Assembly (NCBI GenBank): GCA_964016885.1
Contig: OZ024742.1
Location: forward strand, 356,748,001-356,812,000
From: Eledone cirrhosa
Taxonomy: Eukaryota
Reading direction: 5' to 3'
DNA: 64,000 nt
Each line of letters starts with the position of its first letter. Positions within the stretch are counted from its first letter, which is position 1. A model generated the notes under the pieces. It was not told the DNA's origin. It searched no databases and saw only the letters and a list, made by a program, of their open reading frames with translations. Shown here piece after piece: positions 1,301 to 44,600 of this stretch. A program made the translations under genes and the position numbers.

Positions 1301-1460
1301 GGATTTGCTGAATTGTTGGAGTGTTATACGAAATGACTTGTATTTGTTGTGGCTCCTTACATTCTGAGATCAAATCCTACCTAGGTCAACTTTGCTTTTT
1401 CAGTGTTAATAAGTACCAGCCAAGTACAGGGGTTGATATAATTAACTATATTGGTCTTTC
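1301..1460 (+). mobile_element. Degenerate tRNA-derived SINE copy
   Basis: ggatttgctgaattgttgg (A-box region), ctgagatcaaatcc (B-box), ggtcaactttgctttt...taagtaccag (central domain); colinear with 11909-12099. Confidence 0.65.
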
Positions 1461-1513
1461 AAATGTGGGGTATTAAGCTTATGTGATGAAACTTTATGGT
1501 AAGATGATGGATT

Positions 1514-4500
1514 GCAGTGGATTTGCAGAATCATTAGACCATCGGACAAAAGGCTTTACAACACAGTTAGACCATCGGACAAAAGGCTTTACAACACAGT
1601 TAGACCATCGGACAAAAGGCTTTACAACACAGTTAGACCATCGGACAAAAGGCTTTACAACAAAGTTAGTCCAGTGAACAAAAGGCTTTACAACAAAGTT
1701 ACACCATTGAACAAAAGGCTTTACAACAAAGTTAGACCAGTGAACAAAAGGCTTTACAACAAAGTTAGACCAGTGAACAAAAGGCTTTACAACAAAGTTA
1801 GACCAGTGAACAAAAGGCTTTACAACAAAGTTAGACCAGTGAACAAAAGGCTTTACAACAAAGTTAGACCAGTGAACAAAAGGCTTTACAACAAAGTTAG
1901 ACCAGTGAACAAAAGGCTTTACAACAAAGTTAGACCAGTGAACAAAAGGCTTTACAACAAAGTTAGACCAGTGAACAAAAGGCTTTACAACAAAGTTAGA
2001 CCAGTGAACAAAAGGCTTTACAACAAAGTTAGACCAGTGAACAAAAGGCTTTACAACAAAGTTAGTCCAGTGAACAAAAGGCTTTACAACAAAGTTAGAC
2101 CAGTGAACAAAAGGCTTTACAACAAAGTTAGACCAGTGAACAAAAGGCTTTACAACAAAGTTAGTCCAGTGAACAAAAGGCTTTACAACAAAGTTAGACC
2201 AGTGAACAAAAGGCTTTACAACAAAGTTAGTCCAGTGAACAAAAGGCTTTACAACAAAGTTAGACCAGTGAACAAAAGGCTTTACAACAAAGTTAGACCA
2301 GTGAACAAAAGGCTTTACAACAAAGTTAGTCCAGTGAACAAAAGGCTTTACAACAAAGTTAGTCCAGTGAACAAAAGGCTTTACAACAAAGTTAGACCAG
2401 TGAACAAAAGGCTTTACAACAAAGTTAGTCCAGTGAACAAAAGGCTTTACAACAAAGTTAGTCCAGTGAACAAAAGGCTTTACAACAAAGTTAGACCATT
2501 GAAAAAAAGGCTTTACAACAAAGTTAGTCCAGTGAACAAAAGGCTTTACAACAAAGTTAGACCATTGAACAAAAGGCTTTACAACAAAGTTAGTCCAGTG
2601 AACAAAAGGCTTTACAACAAAGTTAGACCATTGGACAAAAGGCTTTACAACAAAGTTAGACCATTGGACAAAAGGTTTTACAACAAAGTTAGACCATTGA
2701 ACAAAGGCTTTACAACAAAGTTAGACCATTGGACAAAAGGCTGTACAACAAAGTTAGAGCATTGAACAAAAGGCTTTACAACAAAGTTAGACCATTGAAC
2801 AAAAGGCTTTACAACAAAGTTAGTCCAGTGAACAAAAGGCTTTACAACAAAGTTAGACCATTGAACAAAAGGCTTTACAACAAAGTTAGTCCAGTGAACA
2901 AAAGGCTTTACAACAAAGTTAGACCATTGAACAAAAGGCTTTACAACAAAGTTAGACCATTGGACAAAGGCTTTACAACAGAGTTAGACCATTGGACAAA
3001 AGGCTTTACAACAAAGTTAGACCATTGGACAAAAGGCTTTACAACAAAGTTAGACCATTGAACAAAAGGCTTTACAACAAAGTTAGTCCAGTGAACAAAA
3101 GGCTTTACAACAAAGTTAGACCATTGAACAAAAGGCTTTACAAGAAAGTTAGACCAATGAACGAAGGCTTTACAACAAAGTTAGACCATTGGACAAAAGG
3201 CTTTACAACAAAGTTAGACCATTGAACAAAGGCTTTACAACAAAGTTAAACCATTGGACAAAAGGCTTTACAACAAAGTTAGACCATTGAACAAAAGGCT
3301 TTACACCAAAGTTAGAACATTGAACAAAGGCTTTACAACAACGTTAGACCATTGGACAAAAGGCTTTACAACAAAGTTAGCCAATTGAACAAAAGGCTTT
3401 ACAAGAAAGTTAGACCATTGAACAAAGGCTTTACAACAAAGTTAGACCATTGGACAAAAGGCTTTACAACAAAGTTAGACCATTGAACAAAAAGCTTTAC
3501 AACAAAGTTAGACCATTGAACAAAAGGCTTTACAACAAAGTTAGACCATTGGACAAAAGGATTTACAACAAAGTTAGACCATTGAACAAAGGCTTTACAA
3601 CAAAGTTAGACCATTGGACAAAAGGCTTTACAACAAAGTTAGACCATTGAACAAAGGCTTTACAACAAAGTTAGACCATTGAACAAATGGCTTTACAACA
3701 AAGTTAGACCATTGAACAAAGGCTTTACAACAAAGTTAGACAATTGAACAAAAGGCTTTACAACAAAGTTAGACCATTGAACAAAGGCTTTACAACAAAG
3801 TTAGACCATTGGACAAAAGGATTTACAACAAAGTTAGACCATTGAACAAAGGCTTTACAACAAAGTTAGACCATTGAACAAAAAGTTTTACAACAAAGTT
3901 AGACCATTGAACAAAAGGCTTTACAACAAAGTTAGACCATTGAACAAAAGGCTTTACAACAAAGTTAGACCATTGAACAAAGGATTTACAACAAAGTTAG
4001 ACCATTGGACAAAAGGCTTTACAACAAAGTTAGACCATTGAACAAAGGCTTTACAACAAAGTTAGACCATTGGACAAAAGGCTTTACAACAAAGTTAGAC
4101 CAATGAACAAAAGGCTTTACAACAAAGTTACACCATTGAACAAAAGGCTTTACAACAAAGTTAGACCATTGAACAAAAGGCTTTACAACAAAGTTAGACC
4201 ATTGAACAAATGGCGTTACAACAAAGTTAGACCACTGGACAAAAGGCTTTACAACAAAGTTACACCATTGAACAAAAGGCTTTACAACAGAGTTAGACCA
4301 TTGAACAAAAGGCTTTACAACAAAGTTAGACCATTGGACAAAAGGCTTTACAACAAAGTTAGACCATTGAACAAAAGGCTTTACAACAAAGTTAGACCAT
4401 TGAACAAAAGGCTTTACAACAAAGTTAGACCATTGGACAAAAGGCTTTACAACAAAGTTAGACCATTGAACAAAAGGCTTTACAACAAAGTTAGACCATT

Positions 4501-7500
4501 GAACAAAAGGCTTTGCAACACAGTTAGACCAGTGAACAAAAGGCTTTACAACAGAGTTAGACCATTGAACAAAAGGCTTTACAACAAAGTTAGACCATTG
4601 GACAAAAGGCTTTACAACAAAGTTAGACCATTGAACAAAAGGCTTTACAACAGAGTTAGACCATTGAACAAAAGGCTTTACAACAGAGTTAGAACATTGA
4701 ACAAAAGGCTTTACAACAGATTTAGACCATTGGACAAAAGGCTTTACAACAAAGTTAGACCATTGGACAAAAGGCTTTACAACAAAGTTAGACCATTGAA
4801 CAAAAGGCTTTACAACAAAGTTAGACCATTGAACAAAAGGCTTTACAACAAAGTTAGACCATTGGACAAAAGGCTTTACAACAAAGTTAGACCATTGGAC
4901 AAAAGTCTTTACAACAGAGTTAGACCATTGAACAAAAGGCTTTACAACAGAGTTAGACCATTGAACAAAAGGCTTTACAACAAAGTTAGACCATTGGACA
5001 AAATGCTTTACAACAAAGTTAGACCATTGAACAAAAGGCTTTACAACAAAGTTAGACCATTGAACAAAAGGCTTTACAACAAAGTTAGACCTTTGAACAA
5101 AAGGCTTTACAACAAAGTTAGACCATTGGACAAGAGGCTTTACAACAAAGTTAGACCATTGGACAAAAGGCTTTACAACAAAGTTAGACCATTGGACAAA
5201 AGGCTTTACAACAGAGTTAGACCATTGAACAAAAGGCTTTACAACAGAGTTAGACCATTGAACAAAAGGCTTTACAACAGAGTTAGACCATTGGACAAAA
5301 GGCTTTACAACAAAATTAGACCATTGAACAAAAGGCTTTACAACAGCGTTAGACCATTGAACAAAAGGCTTTACAACAAAGTTAGACCATTGAACAAAAG
5401 GCTTTACAACAGAGTTAGACCATTGAACAAAAGGCTTTACAACAGAGTTAGACCATTGGACAAAAGGCTTTACAACAAAATTAGACCATTGAACAAAAGG
5501 CTTTACAACAGCGTTAGACCATTGAACAAAATGCTTTACAACAAAGTTAGATCATTGAACAAAAGGCTTTACAACAGAGTTAGACCATTGAACAAAAGGC
5601 TTTACAACAGAGTTAGACCATTGAACAAAAGGCTTTACAACAGAGTTAGACCATTGGACAAAAGGCTTTACAACAAAATTAGACCATTGAACAAAAGGCT
5701 TTACAACAGCGTTAGACCATTGGACAAAATGTTTTGCAGCAGAGTTAGACCATTGAACAAAAGGCTTTACAACAGAGTTAGACCATTGGACAAAAGGCTT
5801 TACAACAAAATTAGACCATTGAACAAAAGGCTTTACAACAGCGTTAGACCATTGAACAAAAGGCTTTACAACAAAGTTAGACCATTGAACAAAAGGCTTT
5901 ACAACAGAGTTAGACCATTGAATAAAAGGCTTTACAACAGAGTTAGACCATTGGACAAAAGGCTTTACAACAAAATTAGACCATTGAACAAAAGGCTTTA
6001 CAACAGCGTTAGACCATTGAACAAAAGGCTTTACAACAAAGTTAGACCATTGAACAAAAGGCTTTACAACAGAGTTAGACCATTGAACAAAAGGCTTTAC
6101 AACAGAGTTAGACCATTGGACAAAAGGCTTTACAACAAAATTAGACCATTGAACAAAAGGCTTTACAACAGCGTTAGACCATTGAACAAAAGGCTTTACA
6201 ACAAAGTTAGACCATTGGACAAAAGGCTTTACAACAGAGTTAGACAATTGAACAAAAGGCTTTACAACAGAGTTAGACCATTGGACAAAAGGCTTTACAA
6301 CAGAGTTAGACCATTGAACAAAAGGCTTTACAACAGAGTTAGACCATTGAACAAAAGGCTTTACAACAGAGTTAGACCATTGGACAAAAGGCTTTACAAC
6401 AGCGTTAGACCATTGAACAAAAGGCTTTACAACAAAGTTAGACCATTGGACAAAAGGCTTTACAACAGAGTTAGACCATTGAACAAAAGGCTTTACAACA
6501 AAGTTAGACCATTGGACAAAAGGCTTTACAACAGAGTTAGACCATTGAACAAAAGGCTTTACAACAGAGTTAGACCATTGGACAAAAGGCTTTACAACAG
6601 AGTTAGACCATTGGACAAAAAGCTTTACAACAGCGTTAGACCATTGAACAAAAGGCTTTACAACAAAGTTAGACCATTGAACAAAAGGCTTTACAACAAA
6701 GTTAGACCATTGAACAAATGGCGTTACAACAAAGTTAGACCACTGGACAAAAGGCTTTACAACAGCGTTAGACCATTGGACAAAATGTTTTGCAGCAGAG
6801 TTAGACCATTGAACAAAAGGCTTTACAACAAAGTTAGACCATTGGACAAAAGGCTTTACAACAGAGTTAGACCATTGAACAAAAGGCTTTACAACAGAGT
6901 TAGACCATTGGACAAAAGGCTTTACAACAGAGTTAGACCATTGGACAAAAGGCTTTACAACAAAGTTAGACCATTGAACAAAAGGCTTTACAACAAAGTT
7001 AGACCATTGAACAAAGGCTTTACAACAAAGTTAGACCATTGGACAAAAGGCTTTACAACAAAGTTAGACCATTGAACAAAGGCTTTACAACAAAGTTAGA
7101 CCATTGGACAAAAGGCTTTACAACAAAGTTAGACCAATGAACAAAAGGCTTTACAACAAAGTTACACCATTGAACAAAAGGCTTTACAACAAAGTTAGAC
7201 CATTGAACAAAAGGCTTTACAACAAAGTTAGACCATTGAACAAATGGCGTTACAACAAAGTTAGACCACTGGACAAAAGGCTTTACAACAAAGTTACACC
7301 ATTGAACAAAAGGCTTTACAACAGAGTTAGACCATTGAACAAAAGGCTTTACAACAAAGTTAGACCATTGGACAAAAGGCTTTACAACAAAGTTAGACCA
7401 TTGAACAAAATGCTTTACAACAAAGTTAGACCATTGAACAAAAGGCTTTACAACAAAGTTAGACCATTGGACAAAAGGCTTTACAACAAAGTTAGACCAT

Positions 7501-10145
7501 TGAACAAAAGGCTTTACAACAAAGTTAGACCATTGAACAAAAGGCTTTGCAACACAGTTAGACCAGTGAACAAAAGGCTTTACAACAGAGTTAGACCATT
7601 GAACAAAAGGCTTTACAACAAAGTTAGACCATTGGACAAAAGGCTTTACAACAAAGTTAGACCATTGAACAAAAGGCTTTACAACAGAGTTAGACCATTG
7701 AACAAAAGGCTTTACAACAGAGTTAGAACATTGAACAAAAGGCTTTACAACAGATTTAGACCATTGGAAAAAGGCTTTACAACAAAGTTAGACCATTGGA
7801 CAAAAGGCTTTACAACAATGTTAGACCATTGAACAAAAGGCTTTACAACAAAGTTAGACCATTGAACAAAAGGCTTTACAACAAAGTTAGACCATTGGAC
7901 AAAAGGCTTTACAACAAAGTTAGACCATTGGACAAAAGGCTTTACAACAGAGTTAGACCATTGAACAAAAGGCTTTACAACAGAGTTAGACCATTGAACA
8001 AAAGGCTTTACAACAAAGTTAGACCATTGGACAAAAGGCTTTACAACAAAGTTAGACCATTGAACAAAAGGCTTTACAACAAAGTTAGACCATTGAACAA
8101 AAGGCTTTACAACAAAGTTAGACCTTTGAACAAAAGGCTTTACAACAAAGTTAGACCATTGGACAAGAGGCTTTACAACAAAGTTAGACCATTGGACAAA
8201 AGGCTTTACAACAGAGTTAGACCATTGAACAAAAGGCTTTACAACAGAGTTAGACCATTGAACAAAAGGCTTTACAACAAAGTTAGACCATTGGACAAAA
8301 GGCTTTACAACAAAGTTAGACCATTGAACAAAAGGCTTTACAACAAAGTTAGACCATTGAACAAAAGGCTTTACAACAAAGTTAGACCTTTGAACAAAAG
8401 GCTTTACAACAAAGTTAGACCATTGGACAAGAGGCTTTACAACAAAGTTAGACCATTGGACAAAAGGCTTTACAACAAAGTTAGACCATTGGACAAAAGG
8501 CTTTACAACAGAGTTAGACCATTGAACAAAAGGCTTTACAACAGAGTTAGACCATTGAACAAAAGGCTTTACAACAGAGTTAGACCATTGGACAAAAGGC
8601 TTTACAACAAAATTAGACCATTGAACAAAAGGCTTTACAACAGCGTTAGACCATTGAACAAAAGGCTTTACAACAAAGTTAGACCATTGAACAAAAGGCT
8701 TTACAACAGAGTTAGACCATTGAACAAAAGGCTTTACAACAGAGTTAGACCATTGAACAAAAGGCTTTACAACAGAGTTAGACCATTGGACAAAAGGCTT
8801 TACAACAAAATTAGACCATTGAACAAAAGGCTTTACAACAGCGTTAGACCATTGGACAAAATGTTTTGCAGCAGAGTTAGACCATTGAACAAAAGGCTTT
8901 ACAACAGAGTTAGAGCATTGGACAAAAGGCTTTACAACAAAATTAGACCATTGAACAAAAGGCTTTACAACAGCGTTAGACCATTGAACAAAAGGCTTTA
9001 CAACAAAGTTAGGCCATTGAACAAAAGGCTTTACAACAGAGTTAGACCATTGAACAAAAGGCTTTACAACAGAGTTAGACCATTGGACAAAAGGCTTTAC
9101 AACAAAATTAGACCATTGAACAAAAGGCTTTACAACAGCGTTAGACCATTGAACAAAAGGCTTTACAACAAAGTTAGACCATTGAACAAAAGGCTTTACA
9201 ACAAAGTTAAACCATTGAACAAAAGGCTTTACAACAAAGTTAGGCCATTGAACAAAAGGCTTTACAACAAAGTTAGACCATTGAACAAAAGGCTTTACAA
9301 CAAAGTTAGACCATTGAACAAAAGGCTTTACAACAAAGTTAGACCATTGAACAAAAGGCTTTACAACAAAGTTAGACCATTGAACAAAAGGCTTTACAAC
9401 AAAGTTAGAACATTGAACAAAAGGCTTTACAACAAAGTTAGACCATTGAACAAAAGGCTTTACAACAGCGTTAGACCATTGAACAAAAGGCTTTACAACA
9501 AAGTTAGACCATTGAACAAAAGGCTTTACAACAAAGTTAGACCATTGAACAAAAGGCTTTACAACAGAGTTAGACCATTGAACAAAAGGCTTTACAACAG
9601 AGTTAGACCATTGGACAAAAGGCTTTACAACAAAGTTAGACCATTGGACAAAAGGCTTTACAACAAAGTTAGACCATTGAACAAAAGGCTTTACAACAAA
9701 GTTAGAACATTGAACAAAAGGCTTTACAACAAAGTTAGACCATTGAACAAAAGGCTTTACAACAGAGTTAGACCATTGAACAAAAGGCTTTACAACAAAA
9801 TTAGACCATTGAACAAAAGGCTTTACAACAAAGTTAGACCATTGGACAAAAGGCTTTACAACAGAGTTAGACCATTGAACAAAAGGCTTTACAACAAAAT
9901 TAGACCATTGAACAAAAGGCTTTACAACAGAGTTAGACCATTGAACAAAAGGCTTTACAACAAAATTAGACCATTGAACAAAAGGCTTTACAACAGAGTT
10001 AGACCATTGGACAAAAGGCTTTACAACAAAATTAGACCATTGAACAAAAGGCTTTACAACAGCGTTAGACCATTGGACAAAATGTTTTGCAGCAGTAGTC
10101 AAATCCTACTTTGGTCAACTTTCCCTTTTATCCTTCTGGGATAAT
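1514..10145 (+). mobile_element. SINE copy split by an internal 8.5-kb satellite expansion
   Basis: Head gcagtggatttgcagaatcattag at 1514-1537 runs into the array. After the last unit the SINE resumes as tagtcaaatcctactttggtcaactttcccttttatccttctggg (10096-10140; B-box remnant plus central domain). Confidence 0.75.
1533..10095 (+). repeat. 33-bp tandem satellite, consensus GTTAGACCATTGAACAAAAGGCTTTACAACAAA, ~260 units
   Basis: Periodicity directly visible; translates as the 11-aa repeat VRPLNKRLYNK; occasional 32-bp units shift the frame. Confidence 0.98.
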
Positions 10146-10349
10146 AATATGATGACTGTAAACCTCAGACAAGTTTCCAAAGCAATGAAATATGGAAATA
10201 AAAGGTTGATACTGATGAATTACTGTAAACCTTAGGCTAGGTTTAAACTGAGAACTTTCATTTCTGATGCAAAATCTACTGTATATAACAACTATTGTTG
10301 TCTTATAAGTGTGTGTGTTCTCTCTCTTTCACTCATTGCCTCCATCTCT

Positions 10350-11908: not shown

Positions 11909-12099
11909 AGGGCGGTGGATTGGCAGTATTGGTCGAGGGTCAGACACCATGATTTGCAGCAAAGAGTTATGTCCCTTTATGGTTTGAGTTCAAATCCCGC
12001 CGAGGTTTACTTTGCCCTTTATCCTTACGGGGTCGATAACATAAAGTACCAGTAATACACTGGGATAATTGCTGGCCTTGCACCAAAAAGTAGAAACAA
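11909..12099 (+). mobile_element. Full-length tRNA-derived SINE with target-site duplication (reference copy for both satellites)
   Basis: A-box-like TGGCAGTATTGG, B-box GAGTTCAAATCC, central ctttgccctttatccttacggggtcgataacataaagtacc (resembles the Meta-domain type), 3' gctggccttgcaccaaaaagtagaaac. TSD ctattataagccaa at 11889-11902 and 12100-12113. Confidence 0.88.
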
Positions 12100-12290
12100 C
12101 TATTATAAGCCAATGGGAGCCTACACACTGGCCACACCCTGGCCCCAGTGGACAGAATAGAGAAGGCATTTCCCTGGAGGATGGGGAGGGAGATGCATTG
12201 GAAGAGCCATTGCAGCTGTGGGTAGCCAACTCTGTGCTGCTGGTGGTGAGTAGGGAGGTGGTCCTAGGGTCAAGGACACCAGAAGTCTCC
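12100..12290 (-). mobile_element. 3' fragment of a CRE-like element, interrupted at its tail by the SINE
   Basis: Minus-strand ETSGVLDPRTTSLLTTSSTELATHSC; clear nucleotide similarity to 10370-10555 (ccagtggacagaa...gcattggaaga...acaccagaagtctcc). Confidence 0.65.
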
Positions 12291-26105: not shown

Positions 26106-26234
26106 TTTATATAGCATGCCTTGGTGATTTAAATCTGGCAGTTCCTATCCTGCTCTATGTTTGAACAAGTTAACTTTTCTAGAGAAAAAAGCAGAGAATG
26201 AAAGAGAGTGTGATAGAAGTAAATTAGACTCCAA

Positions 26235-29172: not shown

Positions 29173-29470
29173 CATATGAGACAGCTCCAATTATGTGCTG
29201 TCCTCTGCAGGTATAGTAACCAGCTCACAATGTGGGACTAGGGTGTGTCAGGTCCTTATTCTCATGTAAGTATAGATCCAGGCATACCCTCAGTATATGT
29301 TCAGCAGTCAACTGTGGTAACCACACTGGCAGGCTACAGATAGATGTAGCCTCACAGGGTCCAATGTTGTTAATGTCTTCATGTTAAACACTGGAAATTG
29401 ATCACAATCTCAGATCTTGATTAGGAGAAAACATGCTAGCATTGAAGAATGAATGTTGAATGGTGATGAT

Positions 29471-29660
29471 AATTGTTTCTACATTTGGCACAAGGCCAGC
29501 AATTACCCAGTACATTAGTGGTACTTTATTTTATCGACCCCGTAAGGACGAAAGGCAAAGTTAAGTTCGGCGGGTTTGAACTCGGTCCATAAAGGGACCA
29601 AACTGTGCTACAAAACATGATGTCCAACCCTCTACCAATACTGCCAATCCACCGCCCATG
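29471..29660 (-). mobile_element. tRNA-derived SINE whose 5' head is the first unit of the 41-bp satellite
   Basis: Minus strand ccatgggcggtggattggcagtattggtagagggttggacatcatgttttgtagc...gagttcaaacccgccg...ctttgcctttcgtccttacggggtcgataaaataaagtacc...gctggccttgtgccaaatgtagaaacaatt, colinear with 11909-12099. Confidence 0.9.
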
Positions 29661-32600
29661 GTGTACAACCCTCTACAAATACTGCCAATCCAGCACCTAC
29701 GGGGTCCCACCCTCTACCAATACTGCCAATCCACCGCCCATGGCATCCAACCCTCCAACCCTCTACCAATACTGCCAATCCACCAGCCATGGCGTCCGAC
29801 CCTCTACCAATACAGCCAATCCACCACCCATGGCGTCTAAGCCTCTACCAATTCTGCAAATCCACCACCCATGGCATCCAACCCTCTACAAATACTGCCA
29901 ATCCACCACCCATGGCGTCTAAGCCTCTACCAATTCTGCAAATCCACCACCCGTGGCGTCCAATCCTCTACCAATACTGCCAATCCAGCACCCATGGCGT
30001 CCAACCCTCCACCAATTCTGCAAATCCACCACCCATGGCGTCCAACCCTCTACCAATACTGTCAATCCACCACCCATGGCGTCCGACCCTCTACCAATAC
30101 TGCCAATCCAGCACCCATGGCGTCCAACCCTCCACCAATTCTGCAAATCCACCACCCATGGCGTCCAACCCTCTACCAATACTGCCAATCCAGCACCCAT
30201 GGCGTCCAACCCTCCACCAATTCTGCAAATCCACCACCCATGGAATCTAACCCTCTACCAATACTGCCAATCCACCATCCATGGCATCCAACCCTCTAGC
30301 AATACTGCCAATCCACCACCCGTGGCGTCCAACCCTCTACCAATACAGCCAATCCACCACCCGTGGCGTCCAATCCTCTAGCAATACTGCCAATCAAACA
30401 CCCGTGTCATCCAACCCTCTACCAATACAGCCAATCCACCACCCGTGGCGTCCAATCCTCTACCAATAGTGCCAATCCACCACCCATGGCATTCAATCCT
30501 CTACAAATACTGCCAATCCACCACCCATGGCATCCTACCCTCTACCAATACTGCCAATCCACCCCCCAACCGTCCTCCCCTCTACCAATACTGCCAATCC
30601 ACCCCCATGGCCAGACCTTCTACCAATACTGCCAATCCACCACCCATGGCGTCCAACCCTCTACCTATACTGCCAATCCACCACCCATGGCATCCGACCC
30701 TCTACCTATACTGCCAATCCACCACACATGGCGTCCAAACCTCTACCACTACTGCCAATCCACCACCCATGGCGTCCAAACCTCTACTGCCAATCCACCA
30801 CCTATGGCGTCCAACCCTCTACCAATACTGCCAATCCACAACCCATGGCGTCCAACCTTCTACTGCCAATCCACCACCCATGTCGTACAACCCTCTAACA
30901 ATACTGCCAATCCAACACCCATGGCGTCCAATCCTCTACCAATACTGCTAATCCACCACCCATGGCATCCAACCCTCTACCAATACTGCCAATCCAGCAC
31001 CCATGGCGTCCGACCTTCTACCAATACAGCCAATCTACCACCCATGGCATCCGACCGTCTACATATACTGCCAATCCACCACCCATGGCGTTCCACCCTC
31101 TACCAATACTGCCAATCCACGACCCATGGCATCCGACCCTCTACCTATTCTGCCAATCCACCACCCATGGCTTACCACCCTCTACCAATTCTGCCAATCC
31201 ACCACCCATGGCATACAATCCTCTACAAATACTGCCAAGCCACCACCCATGGCATCCAATCTTCTACCAATACTGCCAATCCACACCCAGACCTCCGCCC
31301 CTCTACCAATACTGCCAATCCACCCCCTATGGCCGACCCTCTAACAATACTGCCAATCTACCACCATGGCATCCGCCCCTCTACCTATAATGCCAATACA
31401 CCAATCATGGCGTCCAACCCTCTACCTATACTGCCAATCAAACACCAAGTTTATCCAACCCTCTACCTATACTACAAATCCACCGACCATGGCATCCAAC
31501 CCTCTACCAATACTGCCAATTCACCACCCATGGCGTCCCACCCTCTACCTATACTGCCAATCCACCACCTATGGCATCCAACTCTCTACCTATACTACCT
31601 ATCCACCGCCCATGGCGTCGAACCCTCTACCAATACTGCCAATCCACCACCCATGGCATCCGCCCCTCTACCAATACTGCCAATCCACCCACATGGCCCG
31701 ACCCTCTACCAATACTGCCAATCCACCGCCAATGGCATCCCACCATTTACCATACTGACAACCCAGCACCCATGGCGTCCGACCCTCTACCACTACTGAC
31801 AATCCCCCACCCATGGCGTCCCATCCTCTACCAATACTGTCTATCCTCCCCCCATGGCGTCTAACCCTCTACCAATACTGACAATCCACCACCCATGGCG
31901 TCCCACCCTCTACCTATACTGCCAATCCACCACCTATGGCATCCAACTCTCTACCTATACTTCCAATCCACCGCCCATGGCGTCCGGCCCTCTACCAATA
32001 CTGCCAATCCACCGCCAATGGCATCCGCCCCTCTACCAATACTGCCAATCCACCCACATGGCCCGACACTCTACCAATACTGCCAATCCACCGCCAATGG
32101 CATCCCACCCTTTACCAATACTGACAACCCAGCACCCATGGCGTCCGACCCTCTACCAATACTGCCAATCCACCACCCATGGCGTCCCACCCTCTACCAA
32201 TACTCTCTATCCTCCCCCCATGGCGTCTAACCCTCTACCAATACTGCCAATCCACCACCCATGGCGTCCCACCCTCTACCAATACTGTCAATCCAACACC
32301 CATGGCGTCCGACCCTCTACCAATACTGCCAATCCACCACCCATGGCGTCCCACCCTCTACCAATACTCTCTATCCTCCCCCCATGGCGTCTAACCCTCT
32401 ACCAATACTGCCAATCCACCACCCATGGCGTCCCACCCTCTACCAATACTCTCTATCCTCCCCCCATGGCGTCTAACCCTCTACCAATACTGCCAATCCA
32501 CCACCCATGGCGTCCCACCCTCTACCAATACTCTCTATCCTCCCCCCATGGCGTCTAACCCTCTACCAATACTGCCAATCCACCACCCATGGCGTCCCAC

Positions 32601-35600
32601 CCTCTACCAATACTGTCAATCCAACACCCATGGCGTCCGACCCTCTACCAATACTGCCAATCCACCACCCATGGCGTCCCACCCTCTACCAATACTGCCA
32701 ATCCACCACACATGGCATTTAACCCTCTATCAATACTGCCAATAACCCACACATGGCATCTAACTCTATACCAATACAGCCTATCCATCACACATGGCAT
32801 CCAACCCTCTACCAATACTGCCAATCCAGCACCCATGCCGTTCCACCCTCTACCAATACTGCCAATCAATCACCCATGGCATCCAACCCTCTACCAATAC
32901 TGCCAATCCACCACACATGGCATCCAACCCTCTACCTATACTGCCAATCCGACACCCATGGCATTCAACCATCTACCAATACTGCCAATCCACCATCTAT
33001 GGCATCCGCCCCTCTACATATACTGCCAATTCACCACCATGGCGTCCAACCCTCTACCTATACTGCCAATCCACCACCCATGGCGTCCAACCTTCTACCA
33101 ATACTGCCAATTCACCACCCATGGCGTTCCACCCTCTACCTATACTGCCAATCCACCGCCCATGGCGTCGAACCCTCTACCAATACTGCTAATCCAGCAC
33201 CCATGGCATCCGCCCCTCTACCAATACTGCCAATCCACACCCCCCACCCTTGCCCTACTCTCTACCAATACTGCCAATCCACCACCAATGTCATCACACC
33301 CCCTACCAATACTGCCAATCCAGCACCCATGGCGTCCGACCATCTACCAATACTGCCAATCCACCAACCATGACGTCCGACACTCTACCAATACTGCCAA
33401 TCCACCACCCATGGCGTCCCACCCTCTACCTATACTGCCAATCCACCGACCATGGCATCCAACCCTCTACCAATACTGACAATTAACCACCCATGGCGTC
33501 CCACCCTCTAACTATACTGCCAATCCACCACCTATGGCAGCCAACTCACTACCTATACTACCATCCACCGCCAATGGCGTCGAACCCTCTACCAATACTG
33601 CCAATCCACCACCCATGGCATCCACCCCTCTACCAATACCGCCAATCCACCCACATGGCCCGACCCGCTACCAATACTGCCAATCCAACACCAATGGCAT
33701 CCCACCCTTTACCAATACTGCCAATCCAGCACCCATGGCGTCCGACCATCTACAAATACTGCCAATCCACCACCCATGGCGTCCGACCATCTACTAACAC
33801 TGCCAATCCACCACCCATGGCGTCCCATCCTCTACCAATAATGCGTATCCTCCACCCATGGCGTCCAACCCTCTACCAATACTGCCAATCCACCACCCAT
33901 GGCGTCCCACCCTCTACCAATACTGCCAATCCACCACCCATGGAGTCCCACCCTCTAGTAATACTACCAATCCACCACCCATGGCGTCCCACCCTCCACC
34001 TATACTTACAATGCACCGCCCATGGCGTCGAACCCTCTACCAATACTGCTAATCCACCACCCATGGCATCGGCCCCTCTACCAATACTGCCATTCCGCCC
34101 CCATGGCCCGACCCTCTACCAATACTGCCAATCCAGCACCCATGGCGTCCGACCATCTACCAATACTGCCAATCCACCACCCATGGCGTCCGACACTCTA
34201 ATAATTCTGCCAATCCACCACCCATGGCATCGCACCCTCTACCTATACTGCCAATCCACCGATCATGGCATCCAACCCTCTAACAATACTGCAAATTCAC
34301 CACCCATGGCGTCCCAGCCTCTACCTATACTGCCAATCCACCACTCATGCCGTCCGACCCTCTACCAATACTGCCAATCCACCACCCATGGCGTCCCATC
34401 CTCTACCAATAATGCGTATCCTCCACCCATGACGTCCAACCCTCTACCAATACTGTTAGTCCACCACCCATGGCGTCGCACCCTCTACCAATACTGCCAA
34501 TCCACCACACATGGCATTCAACCCTTTACCTATACTGCCAATCCACCACCCGTGGCATCCGCCCCTCTAATTATACTGCCAATCCAGCACCCATGGCGTA
34601 CCACCCTCTACAAATACTGCCAATCCACCACACATGGCATTTAACCCTCTATCAATACTGCCAATCCACAACACATGGCATCTAACTCTCTACCAATACT
34701 GCCTATCCATCACACATGGCATCCAACCCTCTACCAATACTGCCAATCCACCACCCATGGCGTCCCACCCTCTACCTATACTGCCAATCCACCGCCCAAG
34801 GCGTCGAACCCTCTACCAATACTGCTAATCCAGCAGCCATGGCATCCGCCCCTCTACCAATACTGCCAATCCACCCCCCATGGCCCGACCCTCTACCAAT
34901 ACTGCCAATCCACCACCAATGGCATCACACCCTCTACCAATACTGCCAATCCAGCACCCATGGCGTCCGACCATCTACCAATACTGCCAATCCACCACCC
35001 ATGGCGTCCGACACTCTACCAATACTGCCAATCCACCAGCCATGGCGTCAGACCCTCTACCAATACTGCTTATCCACCACACATGGCATTCAACCCTCTA
35101 CCTTTACTGCCAATCCACCACCCGTGGCATCCGCCACTCTACTTATACTGCCAATCCACGACCCATGGCGTCTCACCCTCTATCAATACTGCCAATGCAG
35201 CACCCATAGCGTCCGACCCTCTACCAATACTGCCACTCCACCACACATGGCATCCAACCCTCTACCAATACTGCCAATCAACCACCCATGGCATCCAACC
35301 CTATATCAATACTGCCAATCAACCAGCCATGGCATCCAACCCTCTACCAATACAGCCAATCCAACACCCATGGCGGCCAACTCTCTACCAATACTGCCAA
35401 TCCACCTCCCATGGCATCCGCCCCTCCACCTATACTGCCAATCTATCACCCATGGCGTCCGACCCTCTACCAATACTGCCAATCAACCACCAAAGGCATC
35501 CGCCCCTCTAACTATTCTGCCAATCCATCACCCATGGCGTACGACCCTCTACTAATACTGCCAATCAACCACCAATGGCATCCAACCCTCTACCAATATT

Positions 35601-38600
35601 GCCAATCCACCACCCATGGCGTCCAACCCTCTACATATACTGCCAATCCACCACCAATGGCATACAACCCTCTACCAAAGCTGCCATCCCACCACACATG
35701 GCATCCAAACCTCTACCAATATTGCCAATCCACCACCCATGGCGTCCGACCCTCTACCAATACTGCCAATCCAGCACCCATGGCGTCCAACACTCTACCT
35801 ATACTGCCAACCCAACACCAATGACTTCCAACCCTCTACCAATATTGCCAATCCACCACCCATGGCGTCCAACCCTCTACCAATACTGCCAATCCACCAC
35901 CCATGGCGTCCAACTCTCTACCTATACTGCCAATCCACCACCAATGGCATCCAACCCTCTACCAATATTGCCAATCCACCACCCATGGCGTCCGACCCTC
36001 TACAAATACAGCCAATCCACCACCCATGGCGTCCAACCCTCAACAAATATTACCAATCCACCGCCCATGGCGTCCGACCCTCTACCAATGCTGCCAATCC
36101 AGCACCCATGGCGTCCAACCCTCTACCAATTCTGCAATTCCACCAACCATGGCGTCAAAACCCTCTACCGATATTGCCAACCCACCACCCATGGCATCCG
36201 ACCCTCTACCTATACTACCAATCGAGCATCCATGGCGTCCAACCCTCTACCTATACTGCCAATCCAGCACCCATAGCATTCAATCCTCTACCAATACTGC
36301 AAATGCAGCACCCATGGCATTCAATCCTCTACCAATACTGCCAATCCACCACACATGGCGTCCCACCCACTACCAATACTGCCAATCCACCACCCATGGC
36401 GTCCAACTCTCTAACAATACTGCTAATCCACCACACATGGCATCCAACTCTCTAACAATACTGCCAATCCAGCACCGATGTCGTCCGCCCCTCTACCAAT
36501 ACTGCCAATACACCACCCATGGCGTCCCACCCTCTACCTATACTGCCAATCCACCACCCGTGGCATCCGCCCCTCTACTTATACTGCCAATCCACCACCT
36601 ATGGCGTCCCACCCTCTACCTATACTGCCAATCCACCACACATGGCATCCAAACCTCTACCAATACTGCCAATCCAGCACCATTGGCGTCCCACCCTCTA
36701 CCAATACAGCCAATCCAACACCCATGGCGTCCAACCCTCTACCAATACTGCCAATCAACCAACCATGCCAGCCGCCCCTCTATCTATACTGCCAATCCAT
36801 CACCCATGGCGTCCGACCCTCTACCAATACTGCCAATCAACCACCCATGGCATCCAACTCTTTACCAATATTGCCAATCCACCACCCATGACGTCCAACC
36901 CTCTACATATACTGCCAATCCACCACCAATGGCATCCAACTCTTTACCAATATTGCCAATCCACCACCCATGACGTCCAACCCTCTACATATACTGCCAA
37001 TCAACCACCCATGGCATCCAACTCTTTACCAATATTGCCAATCCACCACCCATGACGTCCAACCCTCTACATATACTGCCAATCCACCACCAATGGCATC
37101 CAACTCTTTACCAATATTGCCAATCCACCACCCATGACGTCCAACCCTCTACATATACTGCCAATCAACCACCCATGGCATCCAACTCTTTACCAATATT
37201 GCCAATCCACCACCCATGACGTCCAACCCTCTACATATACTGCCAATCCACCACCAATGGCATCCAACCCTCTACCAATGCTGCCAATCCAACAGCCATG
37301 GCGTCCAACCCTGTACCTATACTGCCAATCCACCACCCATGGCGTCCAACCCTCTACATATACTGCCAATCCACCAACAATGGCATCCAACCCTCTACAA
37401 ATGCTGCCATTCCACCACCCATGGCATTCAAACCTTTACCTATACTCCCAATCCACCACCCCTGGCATCCAACCCTCTACCAATATTGCCAATCCACCAC
37501 CCATGGCGTCTAAGCCTCTACCAATTCTGCAAATCCACCACCCATGGCGTCCGACCCTCTACCAATTCTGCAATTCCACCACCCATGCCGTCAAAACCCA
37601 CTACCAATATTGCCAACCCACCACCCATGGCGTCCAACCCTCTACCAATACTGCCAATCCAGCACACATGGCGTCCAAACCATCTGCCACTACTGCCAAT
37701 CCGCCACACGTGGCATCCAACCCTCTACAATACTGCTAATCCACCACCCATGGCGTCCAAACCTCTACCTATACTGCCAATCGAGCACCCATGGCATTCA
37801 ATCCTCTACCAATACTGCCAATCGAGCATCCATGGCATCCAAGCCTCTACCAATACTGCCAATCCAGCACCCATGGCATTCAATCCTCTACCAATACTAG
37901 CAATCCAGCACCCATGGCATTCAATCCTCTACCAATACTGCCAGTCCACCACCCATGGCATCCGCCCCACTAACAATACTGCCAATCCACCCCCCATGGC
38001 CCGACCCTCTACCAATACTACCAATCCACCACCAATGGCATCCCACCCTCTACCTATACTGCCAATCCAGCACCCATGGCGTCCGACCATCTACCAATAC
38101 TGCCAATCCACAACCCATGGCGTCCGACACACTACCACTACTGCCAATCCACCACATATGGCTTTCAATCCTCTACCTATACTGCCAATCCATCACCCGT
38201 GGCATCCGCCCCTCTACTTATACTGCCAATCCACCACCTATTGCGTCCAACCCTCTTACAATACTGCCAATCCACAACCCATGGCATCCTACCCTCTACC
38301 AATGCTGCCATTCCACCACCCATGGCATCCAAACCTCTACCAATGCTGCCATTCCACCACCCCTGGCATCCAACCCTCTACCTATATTGCCAATCCAGCA
38401 CCTATGACGTCCAACTCTCTAACTATACTGCCAATCCACCACCAATGGCTTCCAACCCTCTACCAATACTGCCAATACACCACCCATGGCGTCCCACCCT
38501 CTACCTATACTGCCAATCCAGCACCCGTGGCATCCGCCCCTCTACTTATACTGCCAATCCACCACCTATGGCGTCCCACCCTCTACCAATACTGCCAATG

Positions 38601-41600
38601 CAGCACCCATAGCGTCCGACCCTTTACCTATACTGCCAATCCAGCACACATGGCATCCAACCCTCTACCAATACTGCCAATCCAGCACCGATGGCGTCCC
38701 ACCCTCTACCAATACAACCAATCCAACACCCATGGCGTCCAACCCTCTACCAATACTGCCAATCAACCAACCATGGCATCCGCCCCTCTATCTATACTGC
38801 CAATCCATCACCCATGGCGTCCGACCCTCTACCAATACTGCCAATCAACCACCCATGGCATCCAACTGTTTACCAATATTGCCAATCCACCACCCATGAC
38901 GTCCAACCCTATACATATACTGCCAATCCACCACCAATGGCATCCAACCCTCTACCAATGCTGCCAATCCAACAGCCATGGCGTCCAACCCTGTACCTAT
39001 ACTGCCAATCCACCACCCATGGCGTCCAACCTTCTACATATACTGCCAATCCACCACCAATGGCATCCAACCTTCTACCAATGCTGCCATTCCACCACCC
39101 ATGGCATTCAAACCTCTACCTATACTGCCAATCCACCACCCCTGGCGTCCAACCCTCTTCCAATACTGCCAATCCACACCCCACGACCCGACCCTCTACC
39201 AATACTGCCAATCCACCACCAATGGCATCCCACCCTCTACCAATACTGCCAATCCACCACCCATGGCGTCCGACCATCTACCAATACTGCCAATCCACCA
39301 CCCATGGCGTCCGACACTCTACCACTACTGCCAATCCACCACACATGGCATTCAACCCTCTACCGATACTGCCAATCCACCACCCCTTGCATCCAACCCT
39401 CTACCTATACTGCCAATCCACCACCAATGGCTTCCAACCCTCTACCAATACTGCCAATCCACCATCCATGGAATCCGACCCTCTACCTATAACGCCAATG
39501 CACCACCCATGGCATCCAACCCTCTACCAATACTGCCAATCAACCACCCATGGCGTCCGACCCTCTACCAATACTGCCAATCCACTACCCATGGCGTCCA
39601 ACTCTCTATCTATACTGCCAATCCACCACCAATGGCATCCAACCCTCTAGCAATACAGTCAATCCAACACCCATGGCGTCTAAGCCTCTAATAATTCTGC
39701 AAATCCACCACCCATGGCGTCCAACCCACTACCAATACTGCCAATCGAGCACCCATGGCGTCCGACCCTCTACCTATACTGCCAATCGAGCATCCATGGC
39801 GTCCAACCCTCTACCAATAATGCCAATCCACCACCGATGGCATCCGACCCTCTACCAATACTGCCAATCCAGCACCCATGGCGTCCAACTCTCTACCTAT
39901 ACTGCCAATCCACCACCAATGACATCCAACCCTTTACCTATACTGCCAATCAACCATCCATGGCGTCCCACCCTCTACCAATACTGCCAATCCACCACCC
40001 ATGGCGTCCAACTCTCTACCTATACTGCCAATCCACCACAAATGGCATCCAACACTCTAGCAATACAGTCAATCCACCACCCATGGCGTCCGATCCTCTA
40101 CCAATACAGCCAATCCACCAGCCATGGCGTCTAAGCCTCTACCAATTCTGCAAATCCACCACCCATGGCGTCCAACCCACTACCAATACTGCCAATCCAG
40201 CACCCATGGCGTCCGACCCTCTACCTATACTGCCAATCGAGCATCCATGGCGTCCAACCCTCTACCAATAAAGCCAATCCACCACCGATGGCATACAACC
40301 TTCTACCAATACTGCCAATCCAGCACCCATAGCGTCCGACCCTCTACCAATACTGCCAATCCACCACCCATGCCATTCAATCCTCTACCAATACTGCCAA
40401 TCCACCATACAGTGCATCCAACCCACTAACAATACTGCCAATCCACCACACATGGCATCTAACCGTCTACCAATACTGCCAAGCTACCACCCATGGAGTC
40501 CAACCCTCGACCAATACTGCCAATCCACCACCAATGGCATCCAATCCTCTACCAATACTGCCAATCCACCACCCATGGTGACCAACCCTCTACCAATACT
40601 GCCAATCCAGCACCCATGGCGTCCAAACCCTCTACCAATACTGCCAATCCACCACACGTGGCATCCGACCCTCTACAATATTGCCAATCCAGCACCCATA
40701 ACATCCAACCTCTACCTATACTGCAATCCAGCATCCATGGCGTCCAACCCTCTACCAATACTGCCAATCCAGGACTCATAGCATTCAATCCACTACCAAT
40801 ACTGCCAATCGAGCACCCATGGCATTTCAATCCTCTACCAATACTGCCAATCCAGCACCCTTGCCATTCAATCATCTACCAATACTGCCAATCCAGCACC
40901 CATGGCGTCCAACCCATTACTGCCAATCCACCACCCATGGCGTCCAACCCTCTACCAATACTGCCAATCCCCCTCCCCTGGCATCCAATCCTCTACCTAT
41001 ACTGCCAATCCACCGCCAAGTGCATCTAACCCTCTACTTATACTGCCAATCCACCACCCATGGCATCCAACCCTCCACCAATACTGCCAATCCCCCTCCC
41101 ATGGCATCCAACCCTCTACCTATACTGCAAATCCACCGCCAAGTGCATCTAACCCTCTACTTATACTGCCAATCCACCACCCATGGCGTCCCACCCTCTA
41201 CCAATACTGCCAATGCAGCACCCATAGCGTCCGGCCCTCTACCAATACTGCCAATCCACCACCCCTGTCATCCAACCCTCCACTAATATTGCCAATCCAC
41301 CACCCATTGCGTCCAATCCTCTACCAATACTACCAATCCAGCACCTATGACGTCCAACTCTCTACCTATACTGCCAATCCACCACCAATGGCTTCCAACC
41401 CGCTACCAATACTGCCAATCCACCACCCATGGCGTCTGACCCTCTACCAATACAGCCAATCCACCACCCATGGCGTCTAAGCCCCTACCAATTCTACCAT
41501 TCCACCACCCATGGCGTCCAACCCTCTACCAATACTGCCAATCCACCACCCCTCGCATCCAACCCTCTACCAATACTGCCAATCCACCACCCATGGCGCC

Positions 41601-44600
41601 CGACCCTCTACCAATACTGCCAATCCACCACCCATGGCGTTCAACTCTCTACCTATACTGCCAATCCACCACCAATGGCATCCAACTCTCTACGAATACA
41701 GTCAATCCACCACCCATGGCGTCCGACCCTCTACCAATACAGCCAATCCACCACCCATGGCGTCTAAGCCTCTACCAATTCTGCAAATCCACCACCCATG
41801 GCGTCCAACCCACTACCAATATTGCCAATCCACCACCCATGGCGTCCGACCCTCTACCTATACTTCCAATCGAGCATCCATGGCGTCAAACCCTCTACCA
41901 GTACTGCCAATCCAACACCCATGGCATCCAACCCTCTACAAATACTGCCAATCCACCACTCATGGCATCCAACCCTCTACCAATACTGCCAATCCACCAC
42001 CAATGGCATCCGACCCTCTACCAATACTGCCAATCCAGCACTCATGGCGTCTGACTCTCTACCTATACTGCCAATCCACCATCAATGACATCCACCAGCC
42101 ATGGCGTCCAACCCTCTATCCAGCACCCATAGCGTCCAACTCTGTATCTATACTGCCAATCCACCACCAATGACATCCAACCCTCTACCAATACTGCCAA
42201 TCCAGCACCCGTGGCATCCGCCCCTATACTTATACTGCCAATCCGACACCCATGGCGTCCGACCCTCTACCAATACTGGCAATCCACCACACATGGCGTC
42301 CAACCCTCTACCAATACTGCCAATCCACCACCCATGGCATCCAACCCTCTACCAATACTGCCAATCCAGCACCCATGGCGTCCGACCCTCTACCGATACT
42401 GCCAATCCACCACCCATGGCGTACAACCCTCTACCAATCCTGCCAATCCACCACCCATGGCGTCCAACCCTCTACCAATACTGCCAATCCACCACCTATG
42501 GTATCCGACCCTCTACCTATACTGCCAATCCACCACCAAGTGCATCTAACCCTCTACATATACTGCCAATTCACCACCATGGCGTCCAACACTCTATCAA
42601 TACTGGCAATCCACCAAACATGGCATCCAACCCTCTACCAATACTGCCAATCCAGCACGCATGGCGTCCAACCCTCTACCAATACTGGCAATCCACCACA
42701 CATGGCATCCAACCCTCTACCAATACTGCCAATCCAACATCCATGGCGTCCAACCCTCTACCAATACTGCCAATCCACCACCCATGGCATTCAATCCTCT
42801 ACCAATACTGCCAATCCACCACACAGTGCATCCAACCCACTAACAATACTGCCAATCCACCACACATGGCATCTAACCCTCTACCAATACTGCCAATCTA
42901 CCACCAATGGAGTCCAACCCTCGACCAATACTGCCAATCCACCACCAATGGCATCCAACCCTCTACCAATACTGCCAATCCACCACCCATGGCGTCCAAC
43001 CCTCTACCAATACTGCCAATCCAGCACACATGGCGTCCAAAGCCTCTACCAAAACTGCCAATCCACCACACGTGGCATCCGACCCTCTACCAATACTGCC
43101 AATCCAGCACTCATAGCATTCAATCCTCTGCCAATACTGGCAATCGAGCACCCATGGCATCCAACCCTCTACCAATACTACCAATCCACCACACATGGCA
43201 TTCAACCCTCTACCTATACTGCCAATCCACCACCCGTGGCAACCGCCCCTCTATTTATACTGCCAATCCACCACCCATGGCGTCCCACCCTCTACAATAC
43301 TGCCAATGCAGTACCCATAGCGTCCGGCCCTCTACCAATACTGCCATTCCACCACACATGGCATCCAACCCTCTACCAATACTGCCAATCAACCACCCAT
43401 GGCATCCAAACCTCTACCAATACTGCCAATCAACTACCCATGGCATCAACCCTCTACCAATACAGCCAATCCACCACCCATGGCGTCCAACCCTCTAAAT
43501 ATACTGCCAATCCAGAACCAATGGCATCCAACCATCTACTTATACTGCCAATCCACCACCCATGGCATCCAACCCTCAACCAATGCTGCTATGCCACCAC
43601 CCATGGCATCCAACCCTCTACCAATATTGCCAATCCACCACCCATGGCATCCAACCCTCTACCAATGCTGCCATTCCACCACCCATGGCATCCAAACCTC
43701 TACCAATACAGCCAATCCAGCACCCATGGCGTCCGACCCTCTACCAATACTGCCAATCCACCACCCATGGCATACAACCCTCTACCAATCCTGCCAATCC
43801 ACCACCCATGGCGTCCAACCCTCTACCAATACTGCCAATCCACCACCCATGGCATCCAACCCTCTACCTATACTGCTAATCCAACACCAAGTGCATCTAA
43901 CCCTCTACATATACTGCCAATTCACCACCATGGCGTCCAACCCTCTACCAATACTGCCAATCCACCACCCAAGGTATCTAAATCTCTACCAATACTGCCA
44001 ATTCACCACCTATGGCATCCAACCCTCTACCAATACTGCCAATCGAGCACCCGTGGCATCCGCCCCTATACTTATACTGCCAATCCGACACCCATGGCGT
44101 CCGACCCTCTACCAATACTGGCAATCCACCACACATGGCATCCAACCCTCTACCAATACTGCCAATCCAGCACCTATAGCGTCCGACCCTCTACCAATAC
44201 TGCCAATCCACCACCCATGGCGTTCAACCCTATACCAATACTCCCAATCCACCACCCATGGCATTCAATCCTCTACCAATACTGCCAATCCACCACACAT
44301 GGAATCCAACCCACTAACAATACTGCCAATCCACCACACATGGCATCTAACCGTCTACCAATACTGCCAATCCACAACACATGGCATCTAACCCTCTACC
44401 AATACTGCTAATCTACCACCCATGGAGTCCAACCCTCGACCAATACTGCCAATCCACCACAAATGGCATCCAACCCTCTACCAATACTGCCAATCCACCA
44501 CCCATGGCGTCCAACCCTCTACCAATACTGCCAATCCAGCACGCATGGCGTCCAAACTCTCTACCAATACTGACAATCCAGCACTCATAGCATTCAATCC

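Follow-up and report, generated by a model that had tools for sequence, protein, structure and literature searches.

What could place some 8.5 kb of short tandem repeats inside one copy of an abundant SINE of Eledone cirrhosa? The locus lies in a 64,000-nt stretch of contig OZ024742.1 (forward strand, positions 356,748,001 to 356,812,000; hereafter the window, with coordinates counted from its first letter); the contig measures 379 Mb, and its end is 22 Mb away. A preliminary description of the window had proposed that the segment between the two promoter-like boxes of a single SINE was amplified in place about 260-fold. Our analysis supports this proposal through the colinearity of the locus with the SINE once the array is collapsed, and through the privacy of the repeat unit. 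We put at roughly 85% the probability that a private 33-bp minisatellite of 260 units separates the A-box-like head of one SINE copy from its B-box remnant, and that this array arose in place after the element had inserted.

The array occupies positions 1534-10097 of the forward strand. TRF reports it as a single array (1534-10082) of period 33, with 259.5 copies, 94% matches and 0% indels, and in-register parsing resolves 260 head-to-tail units of 58 distinct sequences, spaced 33 bp apart in 243 cases and 32 bp in 16, in agreement with the amplification first estimated. The first 259 units (1534..10064, including the 16 of 32 bp) are each homologous to positions ~23-55 of the SINE model, and the terminal unit (10065..10095, its start falling at 10064/10065) is the nearest to the SINE family sequence and continuous with the remaining SINE. 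One common state at four diagnostic sites is shared by 228 of 244 33-bp units. Left-edge units retain the family sequence CATCGGAC, and core units have the derived CATTGAAC or CAGTGAAC; differences to the SINE family segment number 7, 7, 7 and 7 in the first four units, 5 in the last, and 8.6-10 in the core blocks. A zone of large internal segmental duplications spans 3965..9000 on the same strand, with offsets of 3034, 3132 and 3297 bp, at which identity reaches 99.8%, 99.2% and 99.4%, respectively, in the best 660-bp windows. The order of unit variants in this zone occurs twice, and their autocorrelation peaks at lags of 92 and 100 units, and also at lag 5 (165 bp).

The elements on either side of the array, both on the forward strand, belong to one SINE model. 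To the left, the 5' head (1513..1533, model positions 3-22) includes the A-box-like motif TTGCAGAATCA at 1523-1533, and the head string gcagtggatttgcagaatcattag, beginning at 1514, runs into the array as originally reported. To the right, the remainder of the element (10096..10150, nhmmer model ~81-128/133) consists of the B-box remnant AGTCAAATCC (10097-10106) and the conserved core CAACTTTCCCTTTTATCCTTCTGGG. The two boxes, both degenerate and recognized by motif resemblance, stand ~8.56 kb apart, close to the separation of ~8.5 kb noted before. The terminal unit agrees at 24 of 31 positions with a minus-strand SINE segment at 29606-29636, and ttagagcattggacaaa recurs in another minus-strand SINE copy at 27717-27733, both as previously claimed.

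Colinearity was assessed by searching the locus with nhmmer and a SINE profile built from 31 copies located elsewhere in the genome. Collapsed in silico to one unit, the locus yields a single hit of 79.2 bits (E 1.7e-25) covering model positions 3-126, which is the outcome that the preliminary description had expected of a SINE expanded from within. In the uncollapsed sequence the left-junction hit covers model positions 3-52, the right-junction hit 22-128 and the units 23-51/53; the two junction hits overlap by exactly one unit, and the right-junction hit passes the end of the terminal unit unbroken (model 22 to 128). The collapsed locus also aligns end to end with single-unit copies, for example with L046 (82% identity over 95 nt) and L052 (over 111 nt), with further pairwise matches to L062, L108 and L109. 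Single-unit SINE copies elsewhere match window positions 1508-1566, and outside copies match 10063-10150. A stretch of ~24 nt that would separate unit from B box is missing from the host SINE; the homology extends to model position 3 on the 5' side and to ~128-133 on the 3' side, short of the 3' terminus, and the sequence past ~10150 gives no alignment to the profile and is not recognizably SINE. A search for a target-site duplication (TSD) of at least 8 nt around the host copy returned only chance-level 7-mers. With no TSD at the host and an unaligned 3' half, the argument for a single insertion as the origin of both flanks is thus one of colinearity.

The non-array parts of the host SINE are identical to the family consensus at 81 of 97 positions (83.5%); the median of 30 other copies is 83.7%. 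The array units are 93.5% identical in mean pairwise comparison and the duplicated blocks 99.2-99.8%, and because both figures exceed that of the host parts, the array is, judged by divergence, younger than the insertion that it occupies. A separate, older-looking SINE copy (1301..1450, forward strand; model 9-175, 77.8 bits) precedes the host copy head-to-tail at a distance of ~60 bp.

The SINE family is a high-copy interspersed element, with 94 hits making up 3.8% of the bases in a 400-kb genome sample, and family members are bounded by TSDs, among them a perfect 14-bp duplication at C3:376.9 Mb and one of 10-13 bp around another SINE of the window. Its consensus contains an A-box-like TGGCAGAATCA and a B-box-like GAGTTCAAATCC, and the head presumably resembles the D/anticodon arm of tRNA-Lys. 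ARAGORN detected no tRNA in the 64-kb window, Rfam gave no tRNA hit there at the gathering score, and an Rfam tRNA search of 12 SINE-bearing loci with E up to 1 returned no hit. Since neither program recognizes a tRNA, a tRNA origin of the SINE head is not demonstrated, and the boxes are to be read as motif resemblances. The window also contains, at 19040-22162 (minus strand), a LINE whose 1040-aa endonuclease/RT/PHD frame is intact; BLAST with SINE queries produced no hit there.

The alternative that survives best accepts the array as real and takes its size and internal 3-kb duplications for assembly artefacts, so that the true allele might be much shorter or longer. Array length and duplications are known from one assembly and the whole-genome reads come from one sample, probably the assembly's own; the 99.8%-identical blocks at a 3-kb offset are a structure that assemblers can produce. 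From public reads an 834-nt contig was built that spans positions 1000-1563 and shows no difference in three runs of that sample, confirming the left junction, the side to which the read check applies. Summed word depth for the first units was ~315-410 times that of the unique flank in the three runs, which implies hundreds of array units in the reads and is of the same order as the 260 assembled, and the variant order is complex, unlike a simple collapse. We regard an artefact of this kind as improbable. The RAD-seq run of another individual (X4), with a single partly fitting read, leaves the locus uncovered and is uninformative on alleles.

A second alternative holds that a master copy of the SINE already bore the 33-bp repeats and was retrotransposed to this site, where only the array length changed later. 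Such element-borne repeats exist: hominid SVA is a non-autonomous retroelement with a minisatellite of 30-50-bp units, a VNTR that is part of the mobile unit and present in all copies. The 33-bp array is likewise a minisatellite inside a retroelement, but it is private to one locus. The unit-variant pattern TTAGWCCANYGRACAAAAGGCTTTACAACA has 194 matches in the 3.0-Gb assembly, and 194 of 194 fall inside this array, which also answers an earlier concern that the same unit might recur with unrelated flanks. A 132-nt array probe gave two first-look candidates genome-wide, and the only one outside the locus, matching at 76% identity, belongs to another array, with a 34-bp unit. A probe for the dimer junction of the 33-bp phase had 0 matches genome-wide with up to two mismatches, which gives no hint that seeding at this phase is frequent or that two-unit copies are common; none of the 59 SINE copies that cover the segment in the 400-kb sample is overlapped by a tandem repeat of period 20-70. 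Confinement of all 194 matches to one array in effect excludes both a repeat-carrying master element and a pre-existing dispersed satellite.

What could favor transmission with a master copy is the behavior of a sister subfamily, whose 41-bp arrays occur at four or more loci, each starting at SINE nt 1, and two of which are nearly equal in length (23.9 and 25.0 units), as would fit short arrays passed on by retrotransposition. One of these loci lies in the window. There a SINE copy of the other subfamily (29460..29657, minus strand; model 2-231, 129 bits) has as its first 41 nt the unit of an adjoining satellite detected by TRF (29623..64000, minus strand; unit SINE nt 1-41), which continues beyond the window to coordinate ~80463, over ~50.8 kb; its end falls exactly at the 5' end of the SINE, adjoining unique DNA, with the TSD of 10-13 bp mentioned above. 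Two 41-bp arrays, both on C3, are ~51 kb long, and each of the two lies within one SINE insertion bounded by TSDs; one 41-bp locus is ~1.9-2 Mb from a contig end. The 51.7-kb array is enclosed by the perfect 14-bp TSD and, given that duplication, must have grown after the SINE inserted. A 34-bp array of the same SINE family is found on contig C6, and the four 41-bp arrays and the 34-bp array are each inside one SINE copy, which provides in-place growth with a precedent in the same genome. Set against the absence of the 33-bp repeat from every other copy searched, the 41-bp arrays leave a master-copy origin very unlikely.

Slightly more doubtful still is a third alternative, which has two SINE fragments enclosing a 33-bp satellite that was already there, or a SINE landing inside such a satellite, with the likeness of unit to SINE due to chance or a junction scar. 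SINEs are dense and often adjacent here, with 15 same-strand pairs among the 94 sampled hits, and two fragments could flank anything. Yet every unit matches the same SINE profile positions, the junction hits share precisely one unit, the collapsed locus forms one continuous hit, and the array lies within the element, not to either side of it, with no such satellite elsewhere in the assembly; this alternative is already largely refuted. A coding repeat of a repetitive protein, with 11 codons per unit and open frames of up to 1013 codons on both strands, can be rejected, as the reading frame changes at each of the sixteen 32-bp units, where the open frames stop, the Pfam matches are summed weak repeated hits to unrelated families with no stretch significant on its own, and the array sequence is SINE-derived.

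We return to growth in place. Edge units nearest to the family sequence, a derived core and nearly identical 3-kb blocks together fit replication slippage and unequal exchange within the locus. The first step would have been a duplication of the ~33-nt SINE segment, possibly aided by an imperfect direct repeat whose two copies, GCAGaATcaTTAG ... GCAGtAT-TTAG, lie at a distance of 33 nt in the SINE. The repeat is retained in the host copy; that only 17 of 80 family copies have it intact, and 8 of 49 in a random sample, counts against such a role. Later growth may have proceeded by replication slippage together with unequal exchange between sister chromatids or homologues, during which derived variants would have swept the core while the edges escaped, by CpG decay of CATCGGAC to CATTGGAC and then CATTGAAC, and by a change from AAAATGYTTTGCAG to AAAAGGCTTTACAA. 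Four linked sites distinguish the main from the terminal unit type, intermediates are few (TCAA in 3 units, GTAA in 1 and GCGA in 2), and main-type letters also occur in other SINE copies, namely L110 and the C6 array, which makes conversion of array units from another copy conceivable. Expansion driven by hairpins was considered and rejected, for a three-unit fold is no more stable than shuffled sequence (z 0.95; in 169 of 200 shuffles the fold is as good or better).

With its boxes 8.56 kb apart and both degenerate, the host copy would no longer be a working Pol III unit. Nothing indicates a function for the 33-bp array or a visible bearing on gene function, and it is probably a neutral by-product.

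Classical minisatellites, or VNTRs, have units of 10-100 bp in kilobase arrays of interspersed variants, differ in length from one individual to another and grow by unequal exchange and slippage. The 33-bp array falls within these limits of unit and array size and resembles them in its mix of variants; at this locus the progenitor sequence can be identified as well. Closer counterparts are the SINE-derived satellites (sSats) of squamates, as presented by Vassetzky, Kosushkin and Ryskov (2023, Mob DNA, PMC10702118), which are tandem repeats derived from a portion of a tRNA-related SINE and whose terminal unit continues into the rest of the element. In the 33-bp array the unit is homologous to part of a SINE found in the same genome (model 23-51/53 of the 31-copy profile), and the terminal unit extends into adjoining SINE that ends at model ~128-133. 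According to the same study, squamate sSats likewise have independent origins within one SINE family that differ in where the unit begins and ends, reach up to ~1000 units, alternate between unit subvariants and are more homogeneous within arrays than SINE copies are among themselves. Unlike them, the arrays described here have a mollusc host and units of 33, 34 and 41 nt (67-215 nt in squamates), and the 33-bp array is one private locus rather than a subtelomerically placed multi-locus family. The 33-bp locus keeps both SINE ends, a minor variant in that account (PMC10702118).

Among molluscs, PcH-sat of the limpet Patella caerulea is a pericentromeric satellite with a 179-bp monomer that accounts for as much as 10% of the limpet's genome; monomer and SINE have a long segment in common, and an origin from Nin-SINE is proposed from similarity only (PMC11121367); at the 33-bp locus, by contrast with that molluscan satellite, the birth site is preserved with SINE head and tail attached. 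Bivalve genomes contain tandem-like arrays of whole SINEs, described as multimers of 2-15 units (PMC11481361). The adjacent head-to-tail pairs in our sample are similar, whereas the 33-bp array is a 260-fold amplification of a 33-nt internal piece. Titles and opening lines of abstracts of the papers surveyed on cephalopod and octopus SINEs, tandem repeats and satellites name no SINE-derived satellite in cephalopods, and the word 'satellite' is absent from the passages seen of the Octopus vulgaris repeat annotation (PMC13282606). SINE-derived satellites are already known from squamates and proposed for a limpet, and the 33-bp array is a clear example that has precedents.

In the Discussion of the squamate study the authors left open whether SINE-derived satellites occur beyond squamates (PMC10702118); the present arrays extend them to a mollusc. 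Besides the 33-bp array, at least two further arrays that differ in unit phase stem from this SINE family; units from its head span nt 1-41, ~nt 14-47 and ~nt 23-55, in arrays of 0.8 kb to ~51 kb. It is a speculative suggestion that the SINE head is a recurrent satellite seed, with at least three independent phases, and that the first duplications of the 41-bp arrays arise during retrotransposition, through template jumping of the reverse transcriptase at the 5' end of the RNA; the latter is suggested by the exact start of the 41-bp units at SINE nt 1 at all four loci examined. If true, cephalopod-type genomes would gain new satellite DNA directly, through the mechanism of SINE insertion itself. 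The birth of a satellite is usually inferred long afterwards, and here the progenitor SINE, the amplified piece, both junctions and the history of internal growth are still readable. Because one SINE family displays several stages of array growth in the same genome, at 25, 260 and ~1240 units, this genome offers a good natural series for the birth of satellites from mobile elements.

TRF reports window positions 1534-10082 as a single array of period 33 (259.5 copies, 94% matches, no indels), and an in-register parse resolves 260 units spaced by 33 bp in 243 cases and by 32 bp in 16. These comprise 58 distinct sequences, the most frequent being TTAGACCATTGAACAAAAGGCTTTACAACAAAG (n = 54), and share a mean identity of 93.5%, far above that of SINE copies compared with each other; predicted secondary structure in three units was no greater than in shuffled sequence. 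The strings and numbers quoted in a preliminary description of the array proved right: the SINE head begins at 1514, 24 of 31 positions of the terminal unit agree with minus-strand 29606-29636, and the third string lies at 27717-27733. The box-like motifs, described there as pushed apart by the array, stand at 1523-1533 and 10097-10106, a separation of about 8.56 kb. Public reads from three runs of a single sample, probably the one used for the assembly, yield contigs that match 1000-1563 without difference, and in those reads the first units reach a summed word depth of about 315-410x that of the flank. No join pointing to a short allele appeared in them, though reads of this kind would hardly reveal one.

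The array flanks are parts of a very common interspersed element, which BLAST and nhmmer find in the window also at 1301-1450, 11909-12112, 25925-26113 and 27216-27373 (plus strand) and at 26232-26329, 27519-27752 and 29460-29657 (minus strand). Its profile gives 94 matches, or 3.8% of bases, in a 400-kb sample drawn from 40 round-number genome positions. The family consensus carries B-box-like GAGTTCAAATCC and A-box-like TGGCAGAATCA motifs, and target-site duplications (TSDs) flank members of the family; the element is called a SINE on the strength of its size, its copy number, the box motifs and the TSDs. Because neither ARAGORN nor Rfam detects a tRNA, whether in the window or in 12 copy-bearing loci, we leave "tRNA-derived" as a reading suggested by the motifs. 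Whole copies frequently follow one another head to tail, 0-20 bp apart, in runs of up to six, as in stretches from elsewhere in the assembly (L134 4005-4610, L142 5262-6209, L167 1890-2926, L139, L160 and L162) and in the window, where the copy at 1301-1450 lies next to 1513; the 400-kb sample holds 15 adjacent same-strand pairs among its 94 matches.

The preliminary description held that the inter-box segment of one SINE copy had been amplified about 260-fold in place, and named colinearity beforehand as a test. Reduced to one unit by script before alignment to SINE copies, the locus matches the profile built from 31 other copies in one continuous stretch (model positions 3-126, 79.2 bits, E 1.7e-25), bearing that expectation out. 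The collapsed locus aligns end to end with the SINE-bearing stretch L046 (82% over 95 nt), and also with L052, L062, L108 and L109. Uncollapsed, the junctions match model positions 3-52 and 22-128, and every unit matches 23-51/53. With the junctions used as separate genome-search queries, single-unit copies elsewhere cover 1508-1566 (head and first unit) on the left and 10063-10150 (last unit, B box and core) on the right. The junction and unit profile matches place the array unit at SINE positions about 23-55, in the interval bounded by the box-like motifs. Some 24 nt that should separate unit and B box are absent from the host copy, and its alignment to the SINE stops past about 10150; its non-array parts agree with the consensus at 81 of 97 positions (83.5%), a value typical of the family (30 other copies: median 83.7%, range 66-92%).

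The unit is also private to this locus, a second point on which the preliminary description had staked its reading: the pattern TTAGWCCANYGRACAAAAGGCTTTACAACA occurs 194 times on the forward strand of the 2.996-Gb assembly and never on the reverse, and 194 occurrences are counted in the window by itself. A 132-nt array probe returned only two first-look candidates, the array itself and a stretch on contig C6 at 76% identity. With all pattern matches in the window and the sole outside candidate so divergent, derivation from a pre-existing dispersed satellite, or from a master element already bearing the repeat, is very unlikely.

For the array, most likely amplified in place, differences among units record its growth. 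The first four units retain CATCGGAC of the family, CpG included, and their distance to the family segment is 7 differences, against 5 for the last unit and 8.6-10 for core blocks. A derived state at four diagnostic sites is common to 228 of 244 33-bp units, the state nearest the family occurs in four (three internal and the terminal one), and single-step intermediates are few. Unit identity is correlated at lags of 5 (165 bp), 92 and 100 units, and 660-bp blocks reach 99.8% identity at an offset of 3034 bp, 99.4% at 3297 bp and 99.2% at 3132 bp. This pattern of edges, core and blocks is the signature of slippage and unequal exchange with concerted evolution, during which the array edges would escape homogenisation. 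Variants recur every five units (165 bp) at 4900-6000 and 8200-9000, for example in the order B-B-I-G-A, and this higher-order structure is near nucleosome length. Speculatively, the seed may have been a direct repeat with imperfect copies, GCAGAATCATTAG and GCAGTAT-TTAG, which lie 33 nt apart in the consensus and are retained in the host copy; only 17 of 80 SINE copies have this repeat intact, and a probe for the corresponding dimer junction found no match genome-wide.

A SINE origin also holds for the 41-bp satellite that takes up the window from position 29623 onward, whose unit is nt 1-41 of a sister subfamily. The array extends for about 50.8 kb, to 356,828,463 on C3, the contig bearing the window (window position about 80463); one end falls exactly at the SINE 5' end, adjoining unique DNA, the other side leads into SINE body and tail, and a 10-13-bp duplication brackets the whole. 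This satellite occupies at least four loci (the window and stretches L122, L123 and L126/L127), each inside a single SINE insertion that has flanks and TSDs of its own. Beyond the window, three loci with arrays of the same build are C3:376,915,951-376,967,694 (about 51.7 kb, perfect 14-bp TSD), C3:11.82 Mb (24 units) and C5:24.82 Mb (25 units); sizes are nearly equal within the large pair on C3 (50.8 and 51.7 kb) and within the small pair. At C6:92.25 Mb (L041 1005-1855, minus strand), an independent array of 25 34-bp units, judged by eye to be about nt 14-47 of another SINE copy, sits between SINE head and B-box part. By the differing SINE limits of the 33-, 41- and 34-bp units, one family gave rise to arrays in three unit phases. 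Relative to the number of copies, these arrays are nevertheless rare: no repeat of period 20-70 overlaps any of the 59 sampled copies covering the segment.

Several unrelated arrays occur within 90 kb in this region, including a 46/92-bp tandem repeat of about 0.7 kb some 340 bp upstream of its start (L128 8940-9664). Outside the array, the window has 39% GC and a CpG observed/expected ratio of 0.44. It holds a minus-strand LINE (19040-22162) whose 1040-aa endonuclease/RT/PHD frame is uninterrupted. Directly 5' of this LINE, 3.3 copies of a 606-bp unit (22465-24449), 99% identical, look like a monomer-type 5' region, and a second, broken minus-strand LINE copy lies nearby (13467-16183). Across the genome, the molluscan haemocyanin beta-sandwich domain has 39 matches, seven per gene cluster, with seven functional units per gene and several tandem or inverted gene copies at C1:173.74-173.91 Mb and C26:21.93-22.02 Mb. 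These matches place the genome among molluscs and loosely suggest an octopod type.

SINE-derived satellites (sSats) were defined in squamates in 2023, in an account that describes units of 67-215 nt, mostly at many loci and with subtelomeric preference, gives one extended terminal unit as the norm, and leaves open their occurrence outside squamates (PMC10702118). Among molluscs, a limpet satellite has been proposed to originate from a Nin-SINE (PMC11121367), and tandems of whole SINEs are described in bivalves (PMC11481361). The 33-bp array resembles squamate sSats (PMC10702118) in SINE origin and terminal-unit structure; unlike them, it is neither multi-locus nor subtelomeric, belongs to another host phylum, has a short unit and keeps both SINE ends. 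Nothing indicates a function for it. The 33-bp array is an sSat by origin, a class already known as such, and an unusually legible case of it.
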